Under the pieces are notes generated by a model that was not told the origin of the DNA, did not search any database, and saw nothing but the letters and a program-made list of their open reading frames with translations. The position numbers and the translations under genes are program-made. A stretch of 32,000 nucleotides of DNA. It comes from Alkalilimnicola ehrlichii MLHE-1 (GTDB lineage Bacteria > Pseudomonadota > Gammaproteobacteria > Nitrococcales > Halorhodospiraceae). This document shows, one piece after another, positions 3,308 to 32,000 of this stretch (the stretch's first letter is position 1; every line of letters starts with the position of its first letter). The stretch spans positions 1,800,001 to 1,832,000 of the forward strand of contig NC_008340.1 in the NCBI RefSeq assembly GCF_000014785.1, in the 5' to 3' direction.

Positions 3308-4364
3308 CAGTACGCCCCGGGATGACCGAAGGCCGCCTCCAGGGCAATGAACAGCCGCCGCTCGGTCCGGAAGTCATCCTCCCGGTCCCGCCGGAGCTGC
3401 GGACGGATCTCCAGACTGAGCCAGTCGCGATGGATCACCGAGCGCCAGCGCACCTGGGCGTAGTATTGGGTGAGCTGGTTATTCGGTTCGCTCTCGCCCC
3501 GGGCACCCACCTGCCAGATCAGCGCCCGGCGTTGGGAGAGCTGCTGGTAATAGGAGACCCGTTGGTCGTAGTAGAACTGCTCTTCCCGCTTAAACCAGGT
3601 GGCCCCCGCCTCCAGCCGCACGGCACTGCGCCCAGTGACCGGGTGGTCCAGGCGGATGTCGGTCGTGGTGCCCGCGCCCCGTCCGTCGTACCAGAACACC
3701 GCCTGGCGGGGACGGATCACCCACAGCCCCGGCTGAAAGGCGCGCCAGACCCGGGCCCGGGTGTAGAGGTCCACCGGGCTGCCGGAGCGCAGGCGGGCGT
3801 CCACCGACGTGGACCAGTTCTCGCTCGGGCGCAGGAAGAGCAACCCCGCGCTGGTGGTGCGGTCCTCGTCCAGGTCCCGCGGCACGCCCCGCTCGGCATC
3901 CACCTCGTCGTCATAGTCATCGCTGGTGATGATCAGGCTCAGGCGATCCTGGGCCCCGGGCAGGCGCAGACGGCCGGAGACCCCGGCCTCCAACCGGCTG
4001 TCACCCTCGGCGCTGAGGCGCTGCTCCAGGCGCAGCCGGGCCACCGAGTCGTACTCCTCGTCCGCGTAGAGTTCGTCATCGGTCCCCAGCATCCGGTCCA
4101 ACTGCCGGGAGAGCAGAAAGACCCCGCGGGCCACGGCGGCCTGGCCCCGATCCACCGGTCCGATCAGGGCGCGCTCCTCATCCTCCTCCGGATACCACTC
4201 CGTGGCGGGGTCATCGCGAACGTGGCGTTCCTCCCGCCGCCTGCTCTCGGCGGCCGCTTCCGCTTCGGCGGCCGCCTCGGGGTCGGCGCCCTCGGCAACC
4301 GCCGCGGCCGGCAGGCCGACCGCCAGTGCCAACCCGACCAGCAGGCGCCCGGCATAACGCACGC

Positions 4365-4371
<7 letters not shown>
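3307..4371 (-). CDS. Secreted protein of unknown family, probable outer-membrane beta-barrel, 354 aa
   Basis: It has an SPase-I type signal peptide ([28 protein letters not shown]) and no Cys. The N-terminal linker is acidic and low-complexity ([22 protein letters not shown]). About 250 aa of alternating hydrophobic/polar strand-like segments follow ([101 protein letters not shown]). The C-terminal residue is aromatic (..GAY). Its start overlaps the ATPase stop by 7 nt (ATGGTGA), and its stop overlaps the permease start. Confidence 0.6.
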
Positions 4372-5075
<704 letters not shown>

Positions 5076-5111
5076 CCGGCCTCCTTCTGCCGCCTGCCCC
5101 GTGCCGCCGGG

Positions 5112-7244
5112 TCAGCCGTCCTGCCCTTGAGTATCGTACGGGCCTTCCGCTTCGGCGAGCCCGTAGACGTGCAGCAGAAAGACGTACCGTCGCGCCACTT
5201 CCTGCAGGTACTCGAAACGCCCGCCCGGGCCGCCGTGACCGGCGCTCATATTGGTGTCGAGCAGCAGCAGCCGGTCCTGCGGCCAGACCTCACGCAACCG
5301 GGCCACCCACTTGGCCGGTTCCCAATAGGTCACCCGCGGGTCGCTGACCCCGGCGGTGACCAATAGGTGCGGGTAGCGCCGGGGGGCCACGTTGTCGTAG
5401 GGCGACCAGCTGAGGATGCGGTGGTAGGCGGCTTCGTCCTCCACCGGATTGCCCCACTCCGGCCATTCCGGCGGGGTGAGCGGCAGGGAGGGGTCGAGCA
5501 TGGTGTTGAGCACGTCCACGAAGGGCACGGCGGCCACCGCCGCATGAAAGAGCTCCGGGCGCTGGTTGAGCACCGCCCCCACCAGCAACCCGCCGGCACT
5601 GCCACCGAACAGCGCCAAGCGGCCGGCGCCGGTATAGCCCTGGTCGATCAGGGCCTCGGCACAGGCGATGGTATCGCTGAAGGTGTTCTGCTTGTGCTCG
5701 CGCCGGCCCTGCCGGTACCAGCGCTGGCCGCGTTCCTTGCCGCCCCGTACGTGGGCGATGGCGAACACGAAGCCGCGATCCAGCAGCGACAGCCGGTGGG
5801 GGCTGAAAGCCGCCTCACTGGTCATGCCGTAGGCACCGTAGGCGTAGAGCAGCAGGGGCGTGCCGGGGTCGGGCTGCAGGTCCGCCCGGTGCACCAGGGA
5901 GATCGGGACCCGCTCGCCGTCCGGCGCGGTGGCGTAGGTGCGGTTGGCCGTATAAGCGGCCGGGTCGTGGCCGGAGGGGATCGGCTGGCGTTTGCGCAGC
6001 ACGCGGCTGGCCTCACGCAGGTCGTGGTCGTGGACCTCGGTCGGGGTGGTGAGGCTGCTCCAGACGGTGCGTAGGGTGTCGGTGCGGTATTCGTAGCCGG
6101 CCACCAGACCCAGATCGCAGGGTTCGTCGCCGAAGTCCAGGCGCCGGGTCGCCCCGTCCGCCCAGGGCCGATAGTAAATGGCCGGCTGCGCATCGGCCAT
6201 CTCGCTCCAGATCAGCCAGTCCTGCAACACGTGCAGGTCGCGGATGAGGCGGCCCGGACGGTGGGGCACCAGATCGGTCCAGCGCCCGGTATCCGCCGGG
6301 GCATCCAGCGGCGCGGCCACGATGCGGAAGTCCTCCGCTTCGCAATTGGTGAGCAGGATCCAGCGCTGGTCGTGATCCAGGGCGGCGTATTCCTGCTCCG
6401 GCGCGCGGGGGATCAGGCAGCGCGGGGGCTGGTCCGGGTCCCCGGCCGGTATCACCCACTGTTCGTTGCTGCCGTGACCGTGGCAGTCGATGAGCAGGAA
6501 GCGGCCGCTCTGGGTGCGGCCCAGGCTCAGGAAATAGCCGGGGTCCGCCTCCTCGTAGACCACCGGCCCCGGGCGGTCGCCGCCGACGTCCTCGCCCAAC
6601 CGGTGCCGGCGCACCCGGCGGGGCCGGTGCTCCTCATCCCCCTCGATCCACAGGAGCGTCCGGCTGTCGGCGGCCCATTCGAAATCACCCCGGACATTCT
6701 CCAGGCAATCAGGGAGGAGTTCCCCCGTTTCGGTGTCGAGAAACCGGATCTGCAGCGTCTCGGACCCGGTAAGGTCCTCGCTGAAGGCCAGATAGCGGTG
6801 ATCGGGGCTGTGGCCCCAGGCCGCCAGATCGTAGTAACTGCAACCGTCGGCCCGGGCGTCGGCGTCCAGCAGGACCTGCTCGCGCCGGTCATCGGCGTCC
6901 TCCCGCGGCCGGCGGCAGATGAGCGAGTGCTCGGCCCCCGGACGGAACCGCCAGTAGTACGCCCACGGCCCGTCGGGCAGGGGCACCCCGCGATCGTCCT
7001 CGGCCAGACGCCCCCGCAGCTCCGCCACCAGTCGCTCATGCAAGGGCTGCAGCGGCCCAAGGACGCGCTCGGTGTGGCGGTTCTCTGTCTCCAGCCAGGC
7101 CCGGATCTCCGGGTGGAGATGGGCCGGATCGGCCATGGCCTCGCGCCACTCCGGGTCGCGCAGCCAGGCCCAGGGGTCCTCGCGGCGGTGGCCGTGGCGC
7201 CGGTCCTTGACGGGGGCTTTATCCAATGGACTCCTTTCGTTCAT
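5112..7244 (-). CDS. ptrB: Oligopeptidase B / protease II (S9A prolyl oligopeptidase family)
   Basis: This 710-aa ORF has an N-terminal beta-propeller region with ..DPWAWLRD.. and a C-terminal alpha/beta peptidase domain. The nucleophile motif is GGSAGGLL, followed by ..GVSDPRV.. and ..SAGHGG.. for the Asp and His. A possible alternative TTG start lies at 7226, after an AGGAG. Confidence 0.88.
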   Translation of the reverse strand: MNERSPLDKAPVKDRRHGHRREDPWAWLRDPEWREAMADPAHLHPEIRAWLETENRHTERVLGPLQPLHERLVAELRGRLAEDDRGVPLPDGPWAYYWRFRPGAEHSLICRRPREDADDRREQVLLDADARADGCSYYDLAAWGHSPDHRYLAFSEDLTGSETLQIRFLDTETGELLPDCLENVRGDFEWAADSRTLLWIEGDEEHRPRRVRRHRLGEDVGGDRPGPVVYEEADPGYFLSLGRTQSGRFLLIDCHGHGSNEQWVIPAGDPDQPPRCLIPRAPEQEYAALDHDQRWILLTNCEAEDFRIVAAPLDAPADTGRWTDLVPHRPGRLIRDLHVLQDWLIWSEMADAQPAIYYRPWADGATRRLDFGDEPCDLGLVAGYEYRTDTLRTVWSSLTTPTEVHDHDLREASRVLRKRQPIPSGHDPAAYTANRTYATAPDGERVPISLVHRADLQPDPGTPLLLYAYGAYGMTSEAAFSPHRLSLLDRGFVFAIAHVRGGKERGQRWYRQGRREHKQNTFSDTIACAEALIDQGYTGAGRLALFGGSAGGLLVGAVLNQRPELFHAAVAAVPFVDVLNTMLDPSLPLTPPEWPEWGNPVEDEAAYHRILSWSPYDNVAPRRYPHLLVTAGVSDPRVTYWEPAKWVARLREVWPQDRLLLLDTNMSAGHGGPGGRFEYLQEVARRYVFLLHVYGLAEAEGPYDTQGQDG

Positions 7245-8831
7245 TCAGTTACCTGCATCACTATTTTCATCCTGTTTCAGCATCTCCGCCACGCGGGCGC
7301 GATCGATCTTTCCGGCACCGGTCAGCGGCAGGGCGTCGACGAAGCGCCAGTGGCGGGGGCGCTTGAAACGGGCCAGCCGCAGGGCCGCGTGCGCCTCCAG
7401 ATCGGCCACCCCGGGGGGCGAGCCGTTGGTGACCACCAGGGCCCCGGGCACCTGTCCCCAGTGGGGATGGGGCACGCCGGCCACGGCGGCGGCGCTCACC
7501 CCCGGGTGGGTATTGAGCACCGTCTCGATCTCCTCGGGCGCGATGTTCTCACCCCCGCTCACGAAGACGTTGTCGGCCCGACCCACCAGGGTGACCCGAC
7601 CGCAGGCGTCGGCCCGCGCCATATCGCCAGTCCAGACCCAGCCGCCCTCCCGGAACACCCGATCCGTGCGGTCGGGGTCGTCGAGATAACCGTCGAAACA
7701 GTGCGGGCTGCGCAGTTCCAGCACCCCCGTCTCGCCCGGGGCCACTACCGTGCCCTCGTCCGGATGGGTGATGCGGTAGTCGGTGTGGAACATGCTCTGC
7801 CCGATACTGTGGCGCAGCTCCCAGATGCCATCGGCCTCCAGCCCGTCGGTGACCAGCATGAAGTTGGACGGCCCGCCCTCGGTCAGCCCGTAGGACTGGG
7901 CCACCGGGATGCCGCGCTCCACCCACGGGCGCATGGTGGCCTCACCGCAGGGCGCCCCGGCGGTGGTGATGCCTTCCAGGGTGGAGAGATCCGTATCGGC
8001 GAAGGCGGGGTGCTTGCTCATCAACTGGAGCATGGCCTCGACCCCGCCGAAGTGGGTGATGCCCTCCGCGGCGATCAGTTCCAGCGCCCGCCCCGGATCA
8101 AACTCGCGCATCAGGACGCTGTACCCGCCGGCGTAGTAGACCGGCGTCAGGGTGTTCCAACCGCCGATGTGGAAGAAGGGGAAGGTGACCAGCTCGCGCT
8201 GGGGCCCCAGCGCCCCGCCGGAGGTCGCCAGGATATCGATGGCGTTCCAGGTCATCTGCCGGTGGCTGATGGGGCAGATCTTCGGCTTGCCGGTGGTGCC
8301 GCCGGTGTGGATATAGAGATAGGGCGCCTGCATGGGCAGGGGGCGGTTGGCCGGTTGCTCGGGCGAAGTGAGCACCCGGCGCTGCCAGACCTCCCCCGCC
8401 TCGTCCAGGGCCAGCCGGCGGCGTACGCTGGGCGGCAGATCCAGCGACTCGGCCAGGGCCGCCAGCGCCTCCTCGTGCATAAAGGCGCTGGGCGCCATGC
8501 GGGCCAGCAGGTCGTTCAACTCGGGGGCGGCCAGGCGGAAACTCAGTGGTGTCAGCACCACCCCGGTCTTGCCACAGGCCAGGTAGAGGTCCACCAGCTC
8601 CAGCCGGTTGCGGCAAAGCACCGCGAAGCGCTCGCCCGGGGCCAGGCCCAGGGTGTCGGTCAGCCACCGCCCGGTGCGGTCGGCACGGGCATTCATCTGG
8701 GCGAAGGTCAGCGGCGGCCCCGCGTCCGGATCATGCACGGCGGGTTTGTCCGGGGTCAGTGCGGCGCGCCGCCCGGCCCAGTCTCCCACCCAGTTCATGG
8801 GCAGGCTGTCGTAGTCGTTGCGCTCGCTCAT
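7245..8831 (-). CDS. AMP-dependent acyl-CoA synthetase/ligase
   Basis: The AMP-binding core motif is YIHTGGTTGKPK, with GYGLTE-like SYGLTEGG, and the C-terminus carries LPLTGAGKIDR. The track ORF begins at a GTG at 9032. I prefer the ATG at 8831 (MSERNDYDSLPMNW..), which has GGAGG 4 nt upstream and avoids overlap with the divergent tatD. The stop (7245..7247) directly abuts the ptrB ATG (TGAATG). Confidence 0.85.
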   Translation of the reverse strand: MSERNDYDSLPMNWVGDWAGRRAALTPDKPAVHDPDAGPPLTFAQMNARADRTGRWLTDTLGLAPGERFAVLCRNRLELVDLYLACGKTGVVLTPLSFRLAAPELNDLLARMAPSAFMHEEALAALAESLDLPPSVRRRLALDEAGEVWQRRVLTSPEQPANRPLPMQAPYLYIHTGGTTGKPKICPISHRQMTWNAIDILATSGGALGPQRELVTFPFFHIGGWNTLTPVYYAGGYSVLMREFDPGRALELIAAEGITHFGGVEAMLQLMSKHPAFADTDLSTLEGITTAGAPCGEATMRPWVERGIPVAQSYGLTEGGPSNFMLVTDGLEADGIWELRHSIGQSMFHTDYRITHPDEGTVVAPGETGVLELRSPHCFDGYLDDPDRTDRVFREGGWVWTGDMARADACGRVTLVGRADNVFVSGGENIAPEEIETVLNTHPGVSAAAVAGVPHPHWGQVPGALVVTNGSPPGVADLEAHAALRLARFKRPRHWRFVDALPLTGAGKIDRARVAEMLKQDENSDAGN

Positions 8832-9016
8832 GCGCCCTCCAGGGATCTGGTCTACCGTTGCCGGCCGCACCCCGGGCCGGCGCCCGATGTCCGGGCCCCG
8901 CGACGGCCCTGCCGGAAGTCTCGCGGCAAACCGACGCGCAAGGCAAGCGCCCATCTGGCCAGCGGGCACCGGAAAAGGGATAATTGCCGCCCGTTTCCTG
9001 GCAGCAAGAGGGTCCC

Positions 9017-9817
9017 ATGAGCGACGCGGCACTGGAACTGGTGGATATCGGCGCCAACCTCAGCCACTCCTCCTTCCGCAAGGACCTGGACGAGGTCCTG
9101 GAGGAGGCGGCCCGGGTCGGCGTGCAAACGCTGATTGTCACCGGCGCCAACGCCAAGAGCGCGGTGGACGGTCTGGCGCTGGCGCGCCGCCATCCCGAGC
9201 GCCTGCGGGCCACCGCCGGCTTTCACCCCCATCACGCCGCGGAGTGGCACGGCGAGTCCGAGGCGCTGCTGCGAGAGCTGGCCGCCGACCCGCTGCTGGT
9301 GTCCGTCGGCGAGACCGGGCTCGATTTCTACCGCGACATCTCGCCACGACCGGTGCAGGAGCGGGTCTTCGAGCGCCACCTGGAGCTCGCCTGCGAGCTG
9401 AAACTGCCCGTCTTCCTCCACCAGCGCGAGGCCCACGAACGGTTCCGCGACATGGTCCGCGCCTATCGCGACGATCTGGTGGACGGCATCGCCCACTGCT
9501 TCACCGGCGACCGCCGCATGCTCCATGAGTACCTGGACCTGGGCCTGCACATCGGCATAACCGGCTGGGTCTGTGACGAGCGCCGGGGCCAGGCCCTGCG
9601 CGAGTGCGTCGCGGACATCCCCCTGGACCGGTTGATGATCGAGACCGACTGCCCCTATCTGATGCCGCGCACCATCCGGCCTCGGCCCAAGACGCGCCGC
9701 AATGTGCCGGCCCACCTTCCCTACGTGCTGGACGAGGTGGCAACGCTGACCGGCCACAACCGGGCCACCATCGCCAGGGCCACCACCACCAACGCCCGGC
9801 GCTTCTTCCGCCTGTAG
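9017..9817 (+). CDS. tatD: TatD-family metal-dependent hydrolase (3'-5' exonuclease TatD-like)
   Basis: MSDAALELVDIGANLSHSSFRKDLDEVL..TAGFHPHHA.. matches the TatD N-terminus and His motifs. The ATG at 9017 is preceded by AAGAGGG. The track ORF starts 33 nt earlier. Confidence 0.85.
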   Translation: MSDAALELVDIGANLSHSSFRKDLDEVLEEAARVGVQTLIVTGANAKSAVDGLALARRHPERLRATAGFHPHHAAEWHGESEALLRELAADPLLVSVGETGLDFYRDISPRPVQERVFERHLELACELKLPVFLHQREAHERFRDMVRAYRDDLVDGIAHCFTGDRRMLHEYLDLGLHIGITGWVCDERRGQALRECVADIPLDRLMIETDCPYLMPRTIRPRPKTRRNVPAHLPYVLDEVATLTGHNRATIARATTTNARRFFRL

Positions 9818-9844
9818 CCCGGCGGGCCCCGGCCCGGTCGCCGC

Positions 9845-10876
9845 TCAGGCGACGGCCGGGGCCTCCGGGACCAGCGCCAGCGCCTGCTCGATTACCTCGG
9901 GGCCGGCCCCGCTCCGGTGCGCCTGTTCGCTGATATGGCGCCGCCAGCGCCGGCCACCGGGGCAGCCGTTGAACAGCCCCAGGATATGGCGCGCGAGGTG
10001 CTGCAGTCGGGCCCCGCCCGCCAGCTCCGTCTCGACATAGGGCAGAAAGGCGCGCACGGCGGCGTGGCGGTCAGGCACCCCGGCCCCGGCGGCACCGAAC
10101 AGGGCCCGGTCCCAGCCGGCCAGCGCCCAGGGGTTGGTGTAGGCCTCGCGCCCCACCATGGCCCCGTCCAAGCCCCGGTCCAGGGTCTCCAGCAGAGTTT
10201 CGGTCCGGGTGATGCCGCCGTTGAGGATCACCTCCAGGGCCGGGAAGTCGCGCTTGAGCCGATAGACCCGCCCGTAGTCCAGCGGCGGGACCTCCCGGTT
10301 CTCCTTCGGGCTCAACCCCTGCAGCCAGGCCTTGCGCGCATGCACATAGAAGGTGCGGCACCCGGCCGCCGCCACCTGATCGACGAAGCCGGTCAGGTGG
10401 TCGTAGCTGTCCAGATGGTCCACCCCGATCCGGTGCTTGACCGTGACCGGCAGCCGGGTGCTCTCCGCCATGGCCGCCACGCAGTCCGCCACCCGGCCCG
10501 GGTCGGCCATCAGGCAGGCGCCGAACGCGCCCGCCTGCACCCGGTCGCTGGGGCAGCCGACGTTGAGATTGACCTCGTCGTAGCTCCAGGCTTCCGCCAG
10601 CCGCGCACAGTGGGCCAGTTGCTCCGGATCCGACCCGCCGAACTGGACCGCCAGGGGCCGTTCGGCCGCGCTGTAGGCCAGGAACCGCTCCGGGTCGTTG
10701 TGCCACACCGCCAGTGCCGGGACCATCTCCGTGAACAGCAGCGTGCGCGGCGCCAGCAGGCGCAGGAAGTAACGCGCATGGCGGTCCGTCCACTCCATCA
10801 TGGGGGCCACCGACAGCCGGCGGTCCGGCTCGGTCGCGCCCGGGGTAACGGTTGTCTGGGTTGCAGTGGGGGGCAT
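9845..10876 (-). CDS. dusA: tRNA-dihydrouridine(20/20a) synthase DusA
   Basis: The DusA signature region is LSVAPMMEWTDRHARYFLRLL and the fold is a TIM barrel (..NLNVGCPSDRV..HARKAWL..). The real start is most likely the ATG at 10876 (MPPTATQ..). The 126 upstream codons of the track ORF are low-complexity read-through. Confidence 0.88.
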   Translation of the reverse strand: MPPTATQTTVTPGATEPDRRLSVAPMMEWTDRHARYFLRLLAPRTLLFTEMVPALAVWHNDPERFLAYSAAERPLAVQFGGSDPEQLAHCARLAEAWSYDEVNLNVGCPSDRVQAGAFGACLMADPGRVADCVAAMAESTRLPVTVKHRIGVDHLDSYDHLTGFVDQVAAAGCRTFYVHARKAWLQGLSPKENREVPPLDYGRVYRLKRDFPALEVILNGGITRTETLLETLDRGLDGAMVGREAYTNPWALAGWDRALFGAAGAGVPDRHAAVRAFLPYVETELAGGARLQHLARHILGLFNGCPGGRRWRRHISEQAHRSGAGPEVIEQALALVPEAPAVA

Positions 10877-13285: not shown

Positions 13286-13885
13286 TCAGGCACTCTCCCG
13301 GGTGCCTTCCAGCACCCGGCAGAACTGCATGAGGATCCCCGCCGTAGCGCCCCAGATGAAGTGTTCGCCCCAGGTCAGGGCATGATACGTTAGACGCCGC
13401 CCCTGGCGTTCGGTTTCATAGAGGCCGTGATTGGCTGGATCGGTCAGGAAGGAGAGCGGCACGGTAAACACCTCGGCCACCTCCTGCGGGTCCGGCCGCC
13501 AGACCACCGGCGGCTCGATCCGCCCGACCACCGGGCGCACCCGGAAGCCGGTACCGGTGTGGTAGGGCCCGAGCCGGCCCAGGAGGGTGACCCGGTCCGG
13601 CTCCAATCCGATTTCCTCCCAGGCCTCCCGCAGCGCCGTGCGCTCGGCGGTCTCTCCGGGCTCCTTGCGCCCGCCGGGGAAGCTGACCTGGCCGGCATGC
13701 TCACGCAACTGCTCACTGCGCCGCGTGAACACCACACGGTAGCCTCCCGGCCCGGGGAGCAGAGGCACCAGCACGGCCGCCGGCGTCGCCCGGCCCTTGA
13801 ACTCCAGGAAACCGGACTCCGGCAGATCCGCCTGCTCCAGGCAACGCGCCAGGCATTCGCTCAGGTCCACCCCCGCTCCGCACAT
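13286..13885 (-). CDS. Nudix hydrolase, CoA pyrophosphatase type
   Basis: The Nudix box is GGRKEPGETAERTALREAWEEIGL. It is preceded by the CoA-pyrophosphatase-type motif VVFTRRSEQLREHAGQVSFPGG. The start lies 10 nt after the lipA stop. Confidence 0.85.
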   Translation of the reverse strand: MCGAGVDLSECLARCLEQADLPESGFLEFKGRATPAAVLVPLLPGPGGYRVVFTRRSEQLREHAGQVSFPGGRKEPGETAERTALREAWEEIGLEPDRVTLLGRLGPYHTGTGFRVRPVVGRIEPPVVWRPDPQEVAEVFTVPLSFLTDPANHGLYETERQGRRLTYHALTWGEHFIWGATAGILMQFCRVLEGTRESA

Positions 13886-25506: not shown

Positions 25507-26364
25507 TCAGGTTGACCCCGGGGCGGCTGTCTCCTGCCCGCCCCGCTCCTCGACCACTGAGGCCGGCCGGTTGGCCTCCACGCCCAGGAAGACATCCCGG
25601 TACGAGACGTACATCAATGCCCCGGCCGCCGGTGCCACCAGCACCCCCGCCCAGCCCAGGCTGAAGGGCACCAGGGCCACCGCCACCAGCAACACCCCTG
25701 CCAGGCCCATCATCGGCACCGGATTGATGGTATAGGCCTGGCTGCTGACCACGGCGGCCGGGTAAACCGGGGCGTTATGCAGCACCAGCATCGGCAGGAG
25801 AAACCACTGACCCAACGCCAGCAGCATCACCAGCAGCACCCCACCGGCCAGGCCCAGCAATGCGCCGAAGATGTACATGGGCCCCATGAAGGCATGGCTT
25901 AAGGGCGGGGCAGCCGGCTCGCCGGTGTCCAGTCTCGGCGACCAATACCCGGCCTGCTCCACCAGCTGCTCGAACCCGACCACCGCAGGCTGCAACGCCA
26001 ACAGGGCGGTGCCGTGCAGGGCGGAGAGAATGGCGGCCATCGCCAGGGCGATCAGGCAGTCCCGGTTGCCCGGCAGTACCAGGCCCCCACGGGCCGGCTT
26101 ACTGAAATCGGCCACCAGCGCCAGGCGGATGAACAGCAGCAGGCTCAACGGCGCCAGGGCCAGGGTTCCCAGGGTGCGCAGCACGCCCCACGTCGCCTGC
26201 TGGCTGACGAAGTGCAGCAGCACCACCGCCGCGGTCCACGCCAACCAGGCCAGCGGACGACGACGGATCAACTCGGCGGCCTGGCCCACCCACCCCTGCC
26301 AGGCATCCGGCTCGACTTGACGAGGTCCCAGTGCTCCCATGGGGCGCCATTGCGGCCTATCCAC
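25507..26364 (-). CDS. Integral membrane protein of unknown function (about 6 TM)
   Basis: It has several 20-aa hydrophobic segments: LAWLAWTAAVVLLHFV, LGTLALAPLSLLLFIRLALV, CLIALAMAAILSALHGTALLAL, MYIFGALLGLAGGVLLVMLLAL, MMGLAGVLLVAVALVPFSLGWAGVLV. The start is uncertain, either 26364 or the internal ATG at 26340. Confidence 0.6.
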   Translation of the reverse strand: MDRPQWRPMGALGPRQVEPDAWQGWVGQAAELIRRRPLAWLAWTAAVVLLHFVSQQATWGVLRTLGTLALAPLSLLLFIRLALVADFSKPARGGLVLPGNRDCLIALAMAAILSALHGTALLALQPAVVGFEQLVEQAGYWSPRLDTGEPAAPPLSHAFMGPMYIFGALLGLAGGVLLVMLLALGQWFLLPMLVLHNAPVYPAAVVSSQAYTINPVPMMGLAGVLLVAVALVPFSLGWAGVLVAPAAGALMYVSYRDVFLGVEANRPASVVEERGGQETAAPGST

Positions 26365-26409: not shown

Positions 26410-26497
26410 GGAGGGGTGGCTGAGTGGTCGAAAGCGGCGGTCTTGAAAACCGTTGGCCCGCAAGGGCCCGGGGGTTCGAATCCCTCCCCCTCCGCCA
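26410..26497 (+). tRNA. tRNA-Ser (anticodon UGA), class II with long variable arm, CCA encoded
   Basis: I folded it by hand. The acceptor stem is GGAGGGG/CCCCTCC. The D stem is GCT/AGC with loop GAGTGGTCGAA. The anticodon stem is GCGGT/ACCGT with loop CTTGAAA (anticodon TGA). The variable arm is TGGCCCGCAAGGGCCCG. The T arm is GGGGG-TTCGAAT-CCCTC with one G-U pair. The discriminator is G, followed by CCA. Confidence 0.93.
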
Positions 26498-27395: not shown

Positions 27396-27507
27396 CGGCT
27401 CCCCTACCCGCGATGATATAGGAATCCGGTTCTGGTGACTGGCGTCAACCCCGGTCAAGTGCGGTATGCTGGTTCTTTCATCCGTACCGCCAGAGGAGGC
27501 CCCGGTC

Positions 27508-27915
27508 ATGCTGACCAAGGAACAGCTGCTCGCCAGCCCACCGGAAGACTACATGAACGACGAGCAGTTGGCCTACTTCCGCCAACTGCTGGAGAAGGAG
27601 CGCAAGGAGATCCTTGAGGGGCTGGAGAGCACCACCCGCCACCTGCGCGACGACAACAGCCGCGAGCCGGACGAGCATGACCGCGCGACGCTGGAGGAGG
27701 AGTACCAGCTCGAGCTGCGCATCCGGGAGCGGGAAACCCGCCTGCTGCGCAAGATCGACCAGGCCCTGCGTCGGATCGAGACCGGCGAGTACGGCTACTG
27801 TGAGGTGACCGGCGAGCCCATCGGGATTCCGCGGCTCCTGGCACGCCCCACCGCCACGCTCAGCATCGAGGCCAAGGAGCGCGCCGAGGTGGAGGAGCGC
27901 ACCCGCCGCTCCTGA
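27508..27915 (+). CDS. dksA: RNA-polymerase-binding transcription factor DksA, variant lacking the Cys4 zinc finger
   Basis: The ATG at 27508 is preceded by AGAGGAGG. The coiled-coil tip motif is DEHDRA (DxxDxA), followed by ..LELRIRERETRLLRKIDQALRRIETGEYGYC.. Where E. coli has CxxC...CxxC, this protein reads CEVT...SIEA. There is only one Cys in the whole protein. Confidence 0.88.
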   Translation: MLTKEQLLASPPEDYMNDEQLAYFRQLLEKERKEILEGLESTTRHLRDDNSREPDEHDRATLEEEYQLELRIRERETRLLRKIDQALRRIETGEYGYCEVTGEPIGIPRLLARPTATLSIEAKERAEVEERTRRS

Positions 27916-27981: not shown

Positions 27982-29517
27982 CTAGCGCCACAGCGCCCCG
28001 CTGAGCAGGCGGCGGCCGCCCCGGGCCGCCTGCCGCACCACTTCAGCCACCCGGCCGCTGGCCGGCTGGCGCTCCAGGCGCACCCGCCGGCCCTGCGCCA
28101 TGACCGGCAGCAGCGCCTCCAGTTCCGCCAGCACCTGTTCCCGGTTATAGGGCGCCACCGCGTCGAGCCGGGCCGGGATGATCTGTCCCGGAGCGAGTTC
28201 CAGTTCCCGGGCCATGGCCTCTCGGGCGGCCGCGATGTTCTGCGCCTTGGGCCGCTCCTCGGGCGGGTCCCACCGGTAGGGCGGTGCCCACTCCCGCTTC
28301 GGCGACAGCCGGTCGATATGACTGGCGATCAGCCGGATCGGCGGTGAACGGCGCTCGGGATGGGCCTGGAAGTGGTCGCGCAGGGCCTGCAGTGCCGCCC
28401 GGTCCGGCCCCCGGTCCGCCCGGTGGGCCGGGCTCACCCAAAGCACCATATCGACGCCGTCGGCGGTCTGGATCAGCTGATCCACATCCCACTTCCGACC
28501 CAACCCCGGAGTGTCGATCAGCAGCACCTCGTCACCCCCGGGCAAGCCACAGATATAGCCTACCCGATCCCCGGTCAATGGCAGGGCATCGCTGCCCGCC
28601 TGCTGTTCGCCGAGCAGCACGTTGATCAGGGCCGACTTCCCGGCCTGCGGCTGCCCGACCACCAGCACCCGGGGCCGGCCCGGCAGCGCCGCCTCCCGCT
28701 CGGCCCCCTCGGCCTCGGCCAGCGCCGCCAGCGCCTCGGCATCCCGCTGCAGCCGGCCGGAGTAGAGCTCGATGGCCGCCCGTCCCACCTCCTCGACCCA
28801 GATCCGCCCCAGGCGCCGCAGCAGGTAGTCGCGCGCGGTGGTGGAGAGCTCCTGCATGAACAGCCCACGCAGTTCCGCAGCAAGGGCGTGGAGGGGGTTG
28901 GCCAGCCGCGCCAGACGGTAGGCCCGCCAGGCCCGCTGGCCATAGGAGAGCCCGGCAGTCACCGCCGGCTTGTAGCCCCACAGGCGCAGGACCTGCCCCA
29001 CCCGGATGCGGTGGGAGAACGGCACCTCATCCAGCAGCAGCCGGCGCAGGCGGGCGCTGATCCGTTCGCTGAGCAGCAGCGCCTCCGGCAGGGTGAAGGC
29101 CCATACCGGGTCGTCGTGCTCCGGGTGGTAATGGCCGGCCACCGCCCGCAGGGTCTGCTCGGCGGTCTGTAACAGGCGGTCCCGGTCGGTCACCAGCGTC
29201 GGCTCCACCGCCTCGCTGAGCCGGGCCACCTCTGCCCAGGCGGCCTGCTCCAACGGGGCCCAATCCGGGTCCGCCGGGCGCACGGGTTGTTCGGCCCGAT
29301 CACGCAGCTCGACCTGCCACCGCCGGCGGAGCCAGAGCAGCGCCGACCAGACCAGGCCGGTGGCGAACGCGGCCGCCCCCGCCCAGATCAGCAACCAGCC
29401 CTGCTGGTGAAGCCAGAGCAGGCCGAACCCGAACAGCGCGACGAAGGGGGCCGCCACCACCAGCGCCGCCAGCCCGAACCCCATCGCCCGAAGGCCTCTC
29501 CGCCACCGGCCGCTCAC
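27982..29517 (-). CDS. Membrane-anchored P-loop GTPase (N-terminal TM hairpin + helical region + C-terminal GTPase domain), 511 aa
   Basis: Two adjacent hydrophobic helices are GFGLAALVVAAPFVALFGFGLLWL and GWLLIWAGAAAFATGLVWSALLWL. G1 is GQPQAGKS, G3 is DTPGLG, and the G4-like motif is SHID, all in the C-terminal third. The GTG start at 29517 is preceded by GGGGAGGGG and overlaps the upstream stop (GTGA). An alternative ATG lies at 29484. Confidence 0.75.
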   Translation of the reverse strand: MSGRWRRGLRAMGFGLAALVVAAPFVALFGFGLLWLHQQGWLLIWAGAAAFATGLVWSALLWLRRRWQVELRDRAEQPVRPADPDWAPLEQAAWAEVARLSEAVEPTLVTDRDRLLQTAEQTLRAVAGHYHPEHDDPVWAFTLPEALLLSERISARLRRLLLDEVPFSHRIRVGQVLRLWGYKPAVTAGLSYGQRAWRAYRLARLANPLHALAAELRGLFMQELSTTARDYLLRRLGRIWVEEVGRAAIELYSGRLQRDAEALAALAEAEGAEREAALPGRPRVLVVGQPQAGKSALINVLLGEQQAGSDALPLTGDRVGYICGLPGGDEVLLIDTPGLGRKWDVDQLIQTADGVDMVLWVSPAHRADRGPDRAALQALRDHFQAHPERRSPPIRLIASHIDRLSPKREWAPPYRWDPPEERPKAQNIAAAREAMARELELAPGQIIPARLDAVAPYNREQVLAELEALLPVMAQGRRVRLERQPASGRVAEVVRQAARGGRRLLSGALWR

Positions 29518-30734
29518 GGCCCCTCCCCGGTGCCGGGGGCGGAGGCGACGGCCCGCCGGCGCACCAGGCCGAAGGCATCGCGCAGCGCCTCGCGGTAGGC
29601 CTGCTCGACGCCGGCGGTGGGATCACGGCCCGCCTCGGCCCGGGCCAGGTAATGGCACGCCGCGTGGCCCAGCGCATAGGTGACAGCGAAGCTGGTTGCG
29701 GCCGCCGCTGCGGCACCCACCGTCTGCCCGTAGCCCGGTACCAGCTTGCCGAGCTGCCGGGCGCCGTGGCCCAGGCCCAGCCCGGCCAGCGTCCCGGAGC
29801 CCAGGGCCGCGAGAAAGGCGCCGAGACTGCGCCGGTCCCAGGGAACCCCGTAGATCCGCCCAAGGCTGTGCAGCAGTTTGCCCTGCAGGACCGGGACCGA
29901 CACCAACCCCAACAGCGGCACGGCATCGCCGGCCGCGGCGGCGCTGGCGTAGCTGAGGATATGGGGCCGGGCCCGGTGCACCCGCGGGTCGTCGTCGGGG
30001 CGGCGCAGGTCCGCAAGGATCGCCGCCAGCCCCTCCGGCGCGAGCGCCTCCAGGGCATCGAGTAGCGCCTCCAGGCCGTAGAGCGGCGGGTCGAAACCCT
30101 CCTCGGCCGGGGTGAAGTCCACGGCCACCACCGCCACCGGCCCCCGGCCGGGCAGGGCCTGAAAGGCGCGGGCCTGCTCGTACCGGCACCGCTGTAGGTC
30201 CTCCAGACCGGGCGTCCGATCCAGCGCCGGGTAGGGTGGGTGATCGCGGCCGGCGGGATAGCCCTCATGGAGGCAGGTCTGGACCAGTAGCACCGGCCAG
30301 TCGGGGTGGGCACGGCGCACCTGACGCAGAGGCTCGAGCACCGCTTCCTGCTGCAGGTCCATGGCGCGCGCAACGGCCAGAACCACGTGGGCCTGGCCGC
30401 TGAGGGCGGCGAGGTCCTCGGCCGGATCATAGTCGGCCTCGCCCAGGCCCCGGCTATCGAGAAACCGCAGCAGCGGGGCATCGGGGGGGAAGTCGTAAAC
30501 CCGGGCCGAGCGGGTACAGCTTTGGAAGCCGGTGCCCACCGTGGCCGCCGGATCGCCGGTGAGGGCGCGCACCAGAGAGGTCTTTCCCGATTGCACCTTC
30601 CCCACCAGCCAGAGCACGGGCGCCGCCTCCCGCGCCTTCCGGGCCAGCTCCGCCTGGTCCACCCCGACCCGCTCCGGGCGCAGCGCGGCATCGATCAGGC
30701 GCTGCCAGGCGCGGGCAAGGCGGGGGCCGGTCAC
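29514..30734 (-). CDS. P-loop GTPase fused to a C-terminal DUF697 (YcjF-like) membrane-associated domain, 406 aa
   Basis: G1 is GKVQSGKTS and G3 is DSRGLG. The C-terminal segment is AVPLLGLVSVPVLQGKLLHSLGRIYGVPWD...LGAFLAALGSGTLAGLGLG...LVPGYGQTVGAAAAAATSFAVTYALGHAACHYL, which matches my memory of the DUF697 pattern. The only available start is the GTG at 30734, which overlaps the upstream stop (GTGA). Confidence 0.75.
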   Translation of the reverse strand: MTGPRLARAWQRLIDAALRPERVGVDQAELARKAREAAPVLWLVGKVQSGKTSLVRALTGDPAATVGTGFQSCTRSARVYDFPPDAPLLRFLDSRGLGEADYDPAEDLAALSGQAHVVLAVARAMDLQQEAVLEPLRQVRRAHPDWPVLLVQTCLHEGYPAGRDHPPYPALDRTPGLEDLQRCRYEQARAFQALPGRGPVAVVAVDFTPAEEGFDPPLYGLEALLDALEALAPEGLAAILADLRRPDDDPRVHRARPHILSYASAAAAGDAVPLLGLVSVPVLQGKLLHSLGRIYGVPWDRRSLGAFLAALGSGTLAGLGLGHGARQLGKLVPGYGQTVGAAAAAATSFAVTYALGHAACHYLARAEAGRDPTAGVEQAYREALRDAFGLVRRRAVASAPGTGEGP

Positions 30735-32000
30735 GACCGCGGGGATCCCGGCTCCAGCGCCGCCACTTCGTCGTGGATCAGCCGGGCAATGGCGTGCTCG
30801 TCATCGCCCAGGGCCTTCAGGCGCTCGGCGCTGATCGGTTCGCCCACCACCACCGTGGCACGGCCGAATCGGGGCAGCCGGCGCCCCTTGGGCATGAGCT
30901 CACGGGTGCCCTCGACCCAGACCGGCACCACGGGGACCGGCCAGGCGCGCAAGAGCAGGCCGACACCGGGCTGGAAGGGCTGCAGGCGGCCATCTGGTGA
31001 GCGCGCGCCCTCGGGGAACCAGACCAGGCTGTCCTGCCGCTGCAGGGTCATGGCCGCCAGGGCCAGGCTGCGCCGTGGCGCGGAGGCCGGATCCACCGGC
31101 AGGACACCCGCCGCGCGGCTGAACCAGCGACTGACCGGCCCTTGGAACAGCAGCCCGGTCCAGCCGGCCCAGCGTAGGTGCAGCATGCGGCGCAGCCCAA
31201 CGGCGTGGGACAGCACCACCGGGTCGAGCACGCTCAGGTGACGCGGGGCGATCAGCACCGGGCCATCGTCCGGCAGCCGCCCGCGCACCTCCACCCGCAC
31301 CCACACACGGGTGAAGAGCGAGGCCAGCGCCCAGAGCAGTCGGGCCGAGACGGCGCTCAGGGCACTGCGCGGCTCGAGCCAGCGCTGCAGATCCTCGGGT
31401 ACATTCGACTCGGGGCGGCGCAATTCCGCCACCAGGTCGCCGGCCCCCTCGGCCGTGCCCTCGCTCTGCCCCGCCCCGGCGGCCTCGCGGAGCAGATCGC
31501 GGACGGTCTCGATGCGCCCGATGGCGTCGTCATCGAACTCGACACCAACCCGGTCGCGCAGGGTCAGGCTGAGGTTGACCCAGGCCAGTGAGTCCAGCCC
31601 CAGGTCCAGGGACAGGCTGGTGTCCGGTGTCAGGCGAAAGTCCGGGTATTTTTCGACCAGGTACTCCCAGGTGGCCTCCGCCGACGGGTCGGTGAGCAGT
31701 TGCTGGTCCTCCGGCGCCATGGACTCCCGGGGGATGGGCTCGGCCTTGGCGGCACTGACCCCGCCCTGTTCCGCCAGGCGGTCGTACAGGTGCTGCAGTT
31801 CGTGGCGGCGAAGCTTGCCCAGCCGGGTCCGCGGCAGCGGGTCCACCGCCACCTGCAGCCGGCCCGGGCGGTGGTGGCTGGGCAGTGCACGGCCGGCCGC
31901 CTGCACCGCACTGATCAGCCGCTCGCGCAGGGCCTCGCCCTGGTGGGCCCGCAGCAGGGCCGGCTCCGGGACCGCCACGCCGACCAGTCGCCCGCCGGAC
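30731..32000 (-). CDS. Aas-like multidomain enzyme: AMP-dependent ligase (C-terminal part visible) + phosphopantetheine carrier domain + PlsC-type acyltransferase; N-terminus beyond the window
   Basis: The frame stays open upstream of the track start to base 32000 (..SGGRLVGVAVPEP..). The ligase C-terminal motif is LPRTRLGKLRRHEL. The carrier motif is LGLDSLAWVNL. The acyltransferase motifs are HLSVLD (HX4D), FPEGARS and VPVVPV. Confidence 0.8.
   Translation of the reverse strand, partial: SGGRLVGVAVPEPALLRAHQGEALRERLISAVQAAGRALPSHHRPGRLQVAVDPLPRTRLGKLRRHELQHLYDRLAEQGGVSAAKAEPIPRESMAPEDQQLLTDPSAEATWEYLVEKYPDFRLTPDTSLSLDLGLDSLAWVNLSLTLRDRVGVEFDDDAIGRIETVRDLLREAAGAGQSEGTAEGAGDLVAELRRPESNVPEDLQRWLEPRSALSAVSARLLWALASLFTRVWVRVEVRGRLPDDGPVLIAPRHLSVLDPVVLSHAVGLRRMLHLRWAGWTGLLFQGPVSRWFSRAAGVLPVDPASAPRRSLALAAMTLQRQDSLVWFPEGARSPDGRLQPFQPGVGLLLRAWPVPVVPVWVEGTRELMPKGRRLPRFGRATVVVGEPISAERLKALGDDEHAIARLIHDEVAALEPGSPRS

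Follow-up and report, generated by a model that had tools for sequence, protein, structure and literature searches.

Two conserved genes for putative membrane GTPases beside a predicted ElbD-like acyltransferase fusion in Alkalilimnicola ehrlichii

To our knowledge, YcjX and YcjF are the sole studied relatives linked to the domain DUF697, and they are themselves poorly understood; a literature search found no mechanistic work on DUF697. The ycjX and ycjF genes are nearly always neighbours, with a loose connection to the psp and sigma-32 stress regulons (PMC3041696). Paired GTPase genes are also a feature of bacterial dynamin-like proteins, most of which are encoded in pairs within operons and form heterotypic oligomers (PMC6104087). 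Among lipid enzymes, ElbD of Myxococcus xanthus belongs to a group whose ElbD-like homologues without the fatty-acyl reductase (FAR) domain exist outside the myxobacteria, in extremophiles (PMC9131029). The locus described here lies in a 32,000-nt stretch of the genome of Alkalilimnicola ehrlichii MLHE-1 (contig NC_008340.1, positions 1,800,001 to 1,832,000; referred to below as the window). Three consecutive minus-strand genes, numbered in the direction of transcription, encode a ligase–carrier–acyltransferase fusion (gene 1), a protein in which a GTPase domain (G domain) is joined to DUF697 (gene 2), and a membrane-anchored GTPase (gene 3).

Conservation of the GTPase gene pair and its relation to gene 1

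The locus is best read as two things lying side by side, a reading to which a probability of about 0.6 is given: a heterodimeric, nucleotide-gated membrane GTPase pair encoded by genes 2 and 3, and a separate ElbD-like lipid enzyme encoded by gene 1, rather than one conserved system. A profile of gene 2 searched against one genome per species in GTDB returned 501 loci with a relative, the best 80 of which were analysed with 10-kb flanks. The sampled loci come from Thioalkalivibrio, Ectothiorhodospira, Nitrococcus, Arhodomonas, Saccharospirillum and Nitrincola among the Gammaproteobacteria, and from Hyphomicrobium, Filomicrobium, Rhodomicrobium and Skermanella (Hyphomicrobiaceae included) among the Alphaproteobacteria. 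In 79 of these 80 best loci, a gene 3 homologue is found by tblastn directly downstream of the gene 2 homologue and on the same strand, and the sole locus without this partner lies at a contig end. The median gap at the junction is -4 nt, and 50 of the 80 loci allow a 4-nt NTGA overlap. Overlaps called by the gene caller measure 4, 11 and 17 nt in Thioalkalivibrio, Filomicrobium and Saccharospirillum, respectively, and an overlap is also present in a related, Alkalilimnicola-like metagenome-assembled genome (MAG). The proteins of the pair remain approximately 50% identical between Alpha- and Gammaproteobacteria.

The G domains of the two proteins share 27% identity over 204 aa in BLASTP (E = 9e-5). 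When the family profiles are compared with hhalign, 201 columns align with a probability of 98% (E = 1.5e-13), among them a common extension ending in PPY, and both families carry the motif P..R-[DE]-[HW]-PPY just downstream of G4. As judged from these alignments, the two G domains are paralogous, and the pair is classified as two uncharacterised, paralogous TRAFAC-class GTPases with opposite domain orders and predicted translational coupling. An earlier model-made reading of the window (the sequence-only reading) had proposed that the two GTPases act together and have reciprocal architectures. The first proposal is supported by their adjacency and common orientation, the median 4-nt overlap and the paralogous G domains; the second is confirmed, the G domain preceding DUF697 in gene 2 but following the hairpin and helical region in gene 3.

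At both junctions of the three-gene cluster, a GTG start overlaps a TGA stop by 4 nt (GTGA), exactly as had been described from the letters alone. In the public gene calls, gene 3 starts at an ATG 30 nt downstream, which gives a protein of 500 aa and removes the overlap with gene 2. The longer start was accepted because gene 3 homologues align from residue 1 of the 511-aa form and because the 4-nt overlap is modal in other genera; the GTGA overlap between genes 2 and 3 is probably real, despite the downstream ATG in the public annotation. A 4-nt overlap alone is no more than a habit of this genome, because functionally unrelated open reading frames (ORFs) abut or overlap elsewhere in the window. 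A mechanical ORF list includes prolyl oligopeptidase and AMP-ligase ORFs separated by a 0-nt gap (7244/7245), and L,D-transpeptidase and NUDIX ORFs overlapping by 8 nt (13286-13293), both on the minus strand. In a compact, high-GC genome, start/stop overlaps are weak evidence for common function.

The gene 1 fusion was found by tblastn next to the GTPase pair in none of the 80 best loci from other genera, nor within 10 kb of it; an ordinary AMP-ligase without an acyltransferase domain is present in three of the 80, some 6-7 kb from the pair and on the opposite strand. In the reciprocal test, the gene 1 homologues of Aquisalimonas, Thioalkalivibrio and Ectothiorhodospira have unrelated neighbours, and the latter two genera possess both the fusion and the pair at separate places in the genome. 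The trio is kept only in the Alkalilimnicola-like MAG, at 81% identity, where the junction between genes 1 and 2 is called with a 36-nt gap. With gene 1 beside the pair in the Alkalilimnicola lineage alone, the trio does not constitute a conserved system. On this comparative evidence, genes 2 and 3 are taken as a self-contained, conserved two-gene module and gene 1 as a neighbour from a separate family. The sequence-only reading had instead put forward a three-gene GTPase–lipid re-acylation system, naming gene-order conservation as the check and a lack of co-conservation as the outcome that would count against it. The trio is not co-conserved, and the proposal is not supported.

A narrower form of that idea is unlikely: in the Alkalilimnicola lineage, a pre-existing heterodimeric GTPase pair of an undescribed prokaryotic class of small, dynamin/IRG-like membrane GTPases would have been recruited into an operon with the ElbD-like acyltransferase, and lipid acylation would be gated or localised by GTP. 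The full form, in which the three genes are one system and the GTPases gate or localise the ligase–carrier–acyltransferase so that membrane lipids are repaired or re-acylated under nucleotide control, is very unlikely. The chain of GTGA overlaps in A. ehrlichii, the gene order retained in the MAG and the plausible action of all three products at the membrane speak for it, as does a scan of the cluster that found no internal promoter- or terminator-like sites, a scan that is weak and uninformative at this high GC content. These points are outweighed by the absence of the fusion from the surroundings of the pair in all 80 other loci, its separation from the pair in Thioalkalivibrio and Ectothiorhodospira, the gap called in the MAG, and the unrelated ORFs that abut or overlap in the same window. 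The named matches of the two also differ, with Halomonas, Halorhodospira and Spiribacter for the fusion versus Saccharospirillum, Nitrincola and Hyphomicrobiaceae for the pair. A link between GTPases and lipid re-acylation would, if true, amount to a membrane-repair system of a new kind, but it finds no support in the comparative genomics.

When all ORFs lying up to 6 kb from the pair in the 80 loci were clustered all against all, no real third gene family exceeded 10 loci; the larger clusters consist of antisense shadow ORFs within the GTPase genes themselves. The neighbours of the pair are lineage-specific housekeeping genes, such as those for an M48 peptidase, PEBP, a DsbA-like protein, DUF924, a class I lysyl-tRNA synthetase-like protein and dihydroorotate dehydrogenase. 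A VTT/DedA-family membrane protein gene no more than about 2 kb upstream was considered as a partner and rejected, as it occurs in 9 of 83 loci, in Thioalkalivibrio and Saccharospirillum only, and probably reflects lineage synteny.

An exhaustive profile search yielded 300 clusters (50% identity) at E <= 1e-30. In the 885-aa protein P0402, a gene-2-like part is fused to a gene-3-like part (transmembrane hairpin, helical region and G domain) in the order of the genes; it is encoded by one ORF at positions 4001-6658 of the fetched locus, on a single 642-kb metagenomic contig. Three other relatives (P0343, P0397 and P0466) are extended at the N-terminus by about 300 aa, with Gly-rich hydrophobic segments and a domain that resembles TerB in its D-G-x-V/I-x-x-x-E repeats, a resemblance seen by reading the sequence only. 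This extension may be another membrane- or stress-type fusion partner for G–DUF697 proteins. Records titled Leptospira interrogans and Bacteroidota MAG carry the proteobacterial-type pair, with 50-52% identity to gene 2. In the Leptospira-titled record, the pair has almost the same positions and identities as in a Proteobacteria MAG, and contamination or mis-binning is likely. The features of the locus are listed in Table 1.

Table 1. Coordinates of the genes, junctions and predicted domains in the window
Feature	Position	Strand	Basis
Gene 1, 3' part (C-terminal 422 codons of an 887-aa fusion)	30731..32000, continues past window end	-	Translation; Pfam; ~885-aa family
Gene 2, 406-aa G-domain–DUF697 protein, first of the conserved pair	29514..30734	-	ORF; Pfam; AlphaFold2 (AF2)
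Gene 3, 511-aa membrane-anchored GTPase, second of the conserved pair	27982..29517	-	ORF; Pfam; AF2
GTGA overlap, gene 1 stop and gene 2 GTG start	30731..30734	-	Sequence; homologue N-termini agree with gene 2 start
GTGA overlap, gene 2 stop and gene 3 GTG start	29514..29517	-	Sequence; coupling kept across genera
Gene 1 carrier (phosphopantetheine-attachment) domain, DSL serine motif LGLDSLAWVNL	31487..31651	-	PF00550, 35.6 bits, fragment residues 117-171
Gene 1 PlsC/LPLAT acyltransferase domain, HX4D motif HLSVLD and FPEGARS	30914..31297	-	PF01553, 63.5 bits, fragment residues 235-362
Gene 2 G domain, ~residues 38-245, P-loop GKVQSGKT, DxxG as DSRG	30000..30623	-	Alignments; BLASTP and hhalign register against gene 3
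Gene 2 DUF697 helical domain, residues 249-385, Gly/Ala-rich	29580..29990	-	PF05128; invariant columns; hydropathy
Gene 3 N-terminal transmembrane hairpin, ~residues 12-65	29323..29484	-	Kyte-Doolittle peaks 2.45 and 1.76; long helices 3-38 and 42-76
Gene 3 helical domain, residues 88-270, conserved motifs FTLPEALLL-ER and EEVGRAAIELYSGRL	28708..29256	-	Alignment; AF2 secondary structure
Gene 3 G domain, residues 283-485, GQPQAGKS, DTPG, SHID, then EW-PPY motif	28063..28671	-	PF01926; PDB profile matches

Architecture and proposed action of the two GTPases

The gene 2 product is 100% identical to the NCBI entry 'YcjF family protein [Alkalilimnicola ehrlichii MLHE-1]'. It matches MMR_HSR1 (PF01926) with 25.5 bits, above the cut-off of 21.9, and DUF697 is matched by 46 of 50 members of its family at E <= 0.05 (best 2.7e-7). 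The motifs GKVQSGKTS and DSRGLG are present, and the G1 and G3 residues are invariant in the family. At the G4 position, an invariant His stands in place of the Asp of the canonical NKxD, within Q-T-x-L-H-[D/E] at residues 152-157 (T153-x-L155-H156), which suggests an altered nucleotide specificity, a regulatory role or an asymmetric pair. The AF2 model is confident overall and, with a predicted local distance difference test (pLDDT) score of 84.9 and a predicted TM-score (pTM) of 0.79, consists of two N-terminal helices, the G domain and a six-helix DUF697 domain. An invariant KLVPxYGQ, the best-conserved motif of DUF697 in this protein, is found in a low-confidence loop (pLDDT 56-67, residues 311-340) between moderately hydrophobic, Gly/Ala-rich helices. 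Hydrophobicity is no more than moderate in the DUF697 part (Kyte-Doolittle 1.5-1.7), which would act as a membrane-associated domain. With the whole chain as query, Foldseek returns the IRG p47 GTPases first (E ~5e-8), followed by EHD2, IniA, BDLP and mitofusin; the matches to BDLP, IniA and mitofusin have E ~1e-5 and TM-scores of 0.19-0.33.

The gene 3 product matches MMR_HSR1 with 42.3 bits over residues 283-366, against the same cut-off of 21.9. It contains GQPQAGKS, DTPGLG and SHID, the last being a variant of NKxD in which the Asp is kept; residues G288, G293, K294, D335 and D402 are invariant in the family, and P24, G32, W35 and L36 are conserved in the hairpin. The AF2 model, likewise confident (pLDDT 86.0), comprises a strongly hydrophobic helical hairpin, a helical domain, the G domain and a C-terminal helix. 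By sequence profile, the closest solved structures to the G domain are Der, MnmE, Era and HflX (E down to 3.5e-27). Among the 45 family members, Dynamin_N is matched by 43, AIG1 by 33 and IIGP by 12, and none has a Pfam match to the helical domain; at this locus, the match to Dynamin_N covers 32 P-loop residues only. The domains that had been assigned to genes 1 to 3 from the letters alone are correct, the Pfam searches being in agreement, although DUF697 is just under its cut-off, and every motif that had been quoted is present in its gene.

The gene 3 product would be anchored in the inner membrane by its hairpin, and the gene 2 product would join the membrane via the Gly/Ala-rich helices of DUF697. 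On binding GTP, the two G domains would associate across the nucleotide sites in the manner of the dynamin, IRG, GIMAP and Toc GTPases, which also dimerise; this pairing would bring both helical domains together at the membrane, with hydrolysis resetting the complex. Given the His at G4 of gene 2, the pair could be asymmetric, one subunit being regulatory or altered in nucleotide specificity. Its likely function, drawn by analogy from ycjX-ycjF, is cytoplasmic-membrane maintenance or a membrane-stress response.

Several points weigh against a heterodimeric membrane pair that is separate from gene 1. Heterodimerisation of the two GTPases is something we infer from their paralogy and tight linkage. 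The DUF697 (PF05128) match of gene 2 itself, at 26.4 bits (E = 6.5e-6, profile positions 16-158 of 162), is just under the cut-off of 27.7, and outside the G domain the resemblance of the gene 2 model to the IRG and dynamin-like structures is weak (TM-score 0.3-0.4, root mean square deviation > 13 Å). For gene 3, Foldseek finds generic G domains only and nothing for the N-terminal helical domain. The P0402 fusion may be real or may be a frame error at the 4-nt overlap, in a contig that is possibly a long-read assembly. More distant G–DUF697 proteins of 365-400 aa occur without a gene-3-like partner in Vibrio vulnificus and as P0364 and P0441, so the partner is not obligatory for the fold and is specific to the subfamily represented in this window. 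Within Alkalilimnicola, the three genes are probably co-transcribed, as suggested by the overlaps and by the trio kept in the related MAG, and a lineage-specific functional link of gene 1 with the pair may exist there.

A function in anti-phage defence or conflict, with the pair as a double-GTPase (DO-GTPase/GAP1) or Leo/dynamin-like defence system, is highly improbable. DO-GTPase/GAP1 systems are defined by a DO-GTPase G domain with an adjacent or fused GAP1 gene and variable effectors, and some DO-GTPases have N-terminal transmembrane segments (PMC7159879). Two paralogous GTPases side by side would fit such a system, and there are weak PADLOC matches to LeoA and LeoBC (E 2.7e-6 to 6e-5), which cover the P-loop region only. 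Against this, no GAP1, effector or variable third gene accompanies the pair in the 80 loci, the neighbours are housekeeping genes that follow lineage synteny, and the conservation of the proteins between Alpha- and Gammaproteobacteria is high. The phage collection gave no match, and the matches in the plasmid collection are confined to distant relatives without a partner, on large Vibrio replicons of ~0.9-1.7 Mb that are typed as non-mobilizable. Membership in DO-GTPase/GAP1 was rejected, as the Pfam family DO-GTPase2 (PF19993) matches 1 of 45 gene 3 family members, at E 0.001, and a conserved third gene was not found.

That genes 2 and 3 encode ordinary Era/Der/HflX-type GTPases of ribosome association or assembly, adjacent by simple duplication, has very little likelihood: the match of both to PF01926 ('50S ribosome-binding GTPase') and the closeness of the gene 3 G domain to Der, MnmE, Era and HflX span the G domain only, a KH, second G or other RNA-binding domain is absent from both proteins, a transmembrane hairpin is present in gene 3 and DUF697 in gene 2, and the NCBIfam scores are far under every equivalog cut-off (e.g., Era, 34.7 versus 237).

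The ligase–carrier–acyltransferase fusion

Gene 1 runs past the end of the window, and its full length was recovered from the source genome record CP184336.1, which matches the window in reverse complement (positions 7341-10004 of the fetched stretch), a step that had been recommended in the sequence-only reading. The complete protein has 887 aa, with AMP-binding (PF00501), PP-binding (PF00550) and acyltransferase (PF01553) domains in N- to C-terminal order, the first of which is added to the two seen in the fragment. The motifs LPRTRLGKLRRHEL, LGLDSLAWVNL, HLSVLD and FPEGARS are present in the window, and the full protein carries the catalytic motifs YTSGTTGAPKG, DSL, HX4D and FPEG. The product would activate a fatty acid, load it onto its own carrier domain and pass the acyl group to an acceptor of the lyso-lipid type.

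The domains of gene 1 are partly those of E. coli Aas (2-acylglycerophosphoethanolamine acyltransferase/acyl-ACP synthetase, ACP being the acyl carrier protein) and of LplT-Aas, which likewise combine a PlsC-type acyltransferase with an acyl-activating AMP-ligase, and lyso-lipid re-acylation is the likely common role. The domain order is reversed between them, and gene 1 has a carrier domain of its own; both differences from Aas had been proposed from the fragment, and both are seen in the 887-aa protein. Assignment of gene 1 as Aas or LplT-Aas was rejected on its ligase–ACP–acyltransferase order and on its scores against the Aas-type NCBIfam models, which are far under the equivalog cut-offs (19.4 versus 886 for PRK08043 and 192 versus 1221 for PRK08633).

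The closer likeness is to ElbD, in which ACS-like, ACP and AGPAT-like acyltransferase domains are joined in one chain in the same order as in gene 1 (PMC9131029). The N-terminal FAR1-like reductase domain of ElbD was not detected by Pfam in gene 1, in keeping with the FAR-less homologues. There are no elbB, elbC or elbE neighbours in A. ehrlichii, and the likeness is one of domain order rather than of direct alignment with ElbD. The ligase–ACP–acyltransferase architecture is not new, as FAR-less ElbD-like proteins are in the literature (PMC9131029). From its domains and homologues, gene 1 is assigned to a separate, widespread ElbD-like family of reductase-less acyl-AMP ligase–ACP–PlsC proteins. 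This family of ~885-aa proteins is large, and is found in Ectothiorhodospiraceae, Halomonas/Vreelandella, Halorhodospira, Spiribacter and others. Lipid genes are often near its members, such as PAP2 in A. ehrlichii and, downstream in Thioalkalivibrio, genes for cyclopropane fatty acid synthase and a phospholipase D-type protein; such varied, often lipid-gene neighbourhoods are consistent with an independent role in lipid metabolism. Downstream of the gene 1 homologue in Aquisalimonas come first an ORF of 112 aa, overlapping by 4 nt, and next a short-chain dehydrogenase/epimerase-like gene, an arrangement reminiscent of elbD-elbE.

At the other end of the cluster, a gene for a DksA/TraR-family zinc-finger protein (27466-27915, plus strand) is convergent with gene 3, and the arrangement is kept in the related MAG. 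A tRNA-Ser gene with the anticodon TGA lies at 26410-26497 on the plus strand, flanked by an EamA transporter gene and by a 285-aa membrane-like ORF without a Pfam match (25507-26364, minus strand).

Comparison with known GTPase systems

YcjX and YcjF of E. coli are a DUF463 GTPase and a DUF697 inner-membrane protein, respectively. As in the pair described here, an NTPase and DUF697 are encoded together, and ycjX and ycjF overlap by 4 nt, like genes 2 and 3. Unlike in YcjX–YcjF, a single protein, that of gene 2, carries both the G domain and DUF697 and lacks the N-terminal membrane region of YcjF, and the pair adds a second, transmembrane-anchored paralogous GTPase. The G domains of genes 2 and 3 are of the MMR_HSR1 type, not DUF463, and hhalign aligns the gene 3 family with YcjX at the P-loop only. 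When both family profiles were compared with the single E. coli YcjF and YcjX sequences, hhalign found nothing past the P-loop, single-sequence templates being of low power. No linkage to psp or tyrR was seen at the loci inspected (A. ehrlichii, Thioalkalivibrio, Filomicrobium and Saccharospirillum). A YcjF-type architecture with an adjacent ycjX was rejected, since the N-terminus of gene 2 is a G domain and a DUF463 gene is absent from the locus.

Paired bacterial dynamin-like proteins, such as Campylobacter DLP1/DLP2, LeoA/LeoBC and DynA, resemble the pair in having two GTPase genes in an operon (PMC6104087). Together with the IRG p47 GTPases, they also share with it the combination of a G domain and a helical domain, and attachment to the membrane via hydrophobic helices, which is presumed for gene 2. 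At 406 and 511 aa, the two proteins described here are much smaller, and neither a neck/trunk stalk nor a paddle can be recognised in them; the membrane anchor of gene 3 precedes its G domain. TM-scores of gene 2 against dynamin-like and IRG p47 structures are 0.2-0.4 in Foldseek. Classification of the pair as full bacterial dynamin-like proteins was rejected, given the 32-residue extent of the Dynamin_N match and the generic G domains matched by the gene 3 structure.

The subfamily represented by genes 2 and 3 is a compact two-gene handle on the membrane role of this domain. The pair offers a fused G-domain–DUF697 protein, a transmembrane-anchored paralogue, strict 4-nt coupling, an asymmetric G4 and the conserved KLVPxYGQ loop. 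Judged by analogy, its nearest counterparts are ycjX-ycjF and the paired bacterial dynamin-like proteins.

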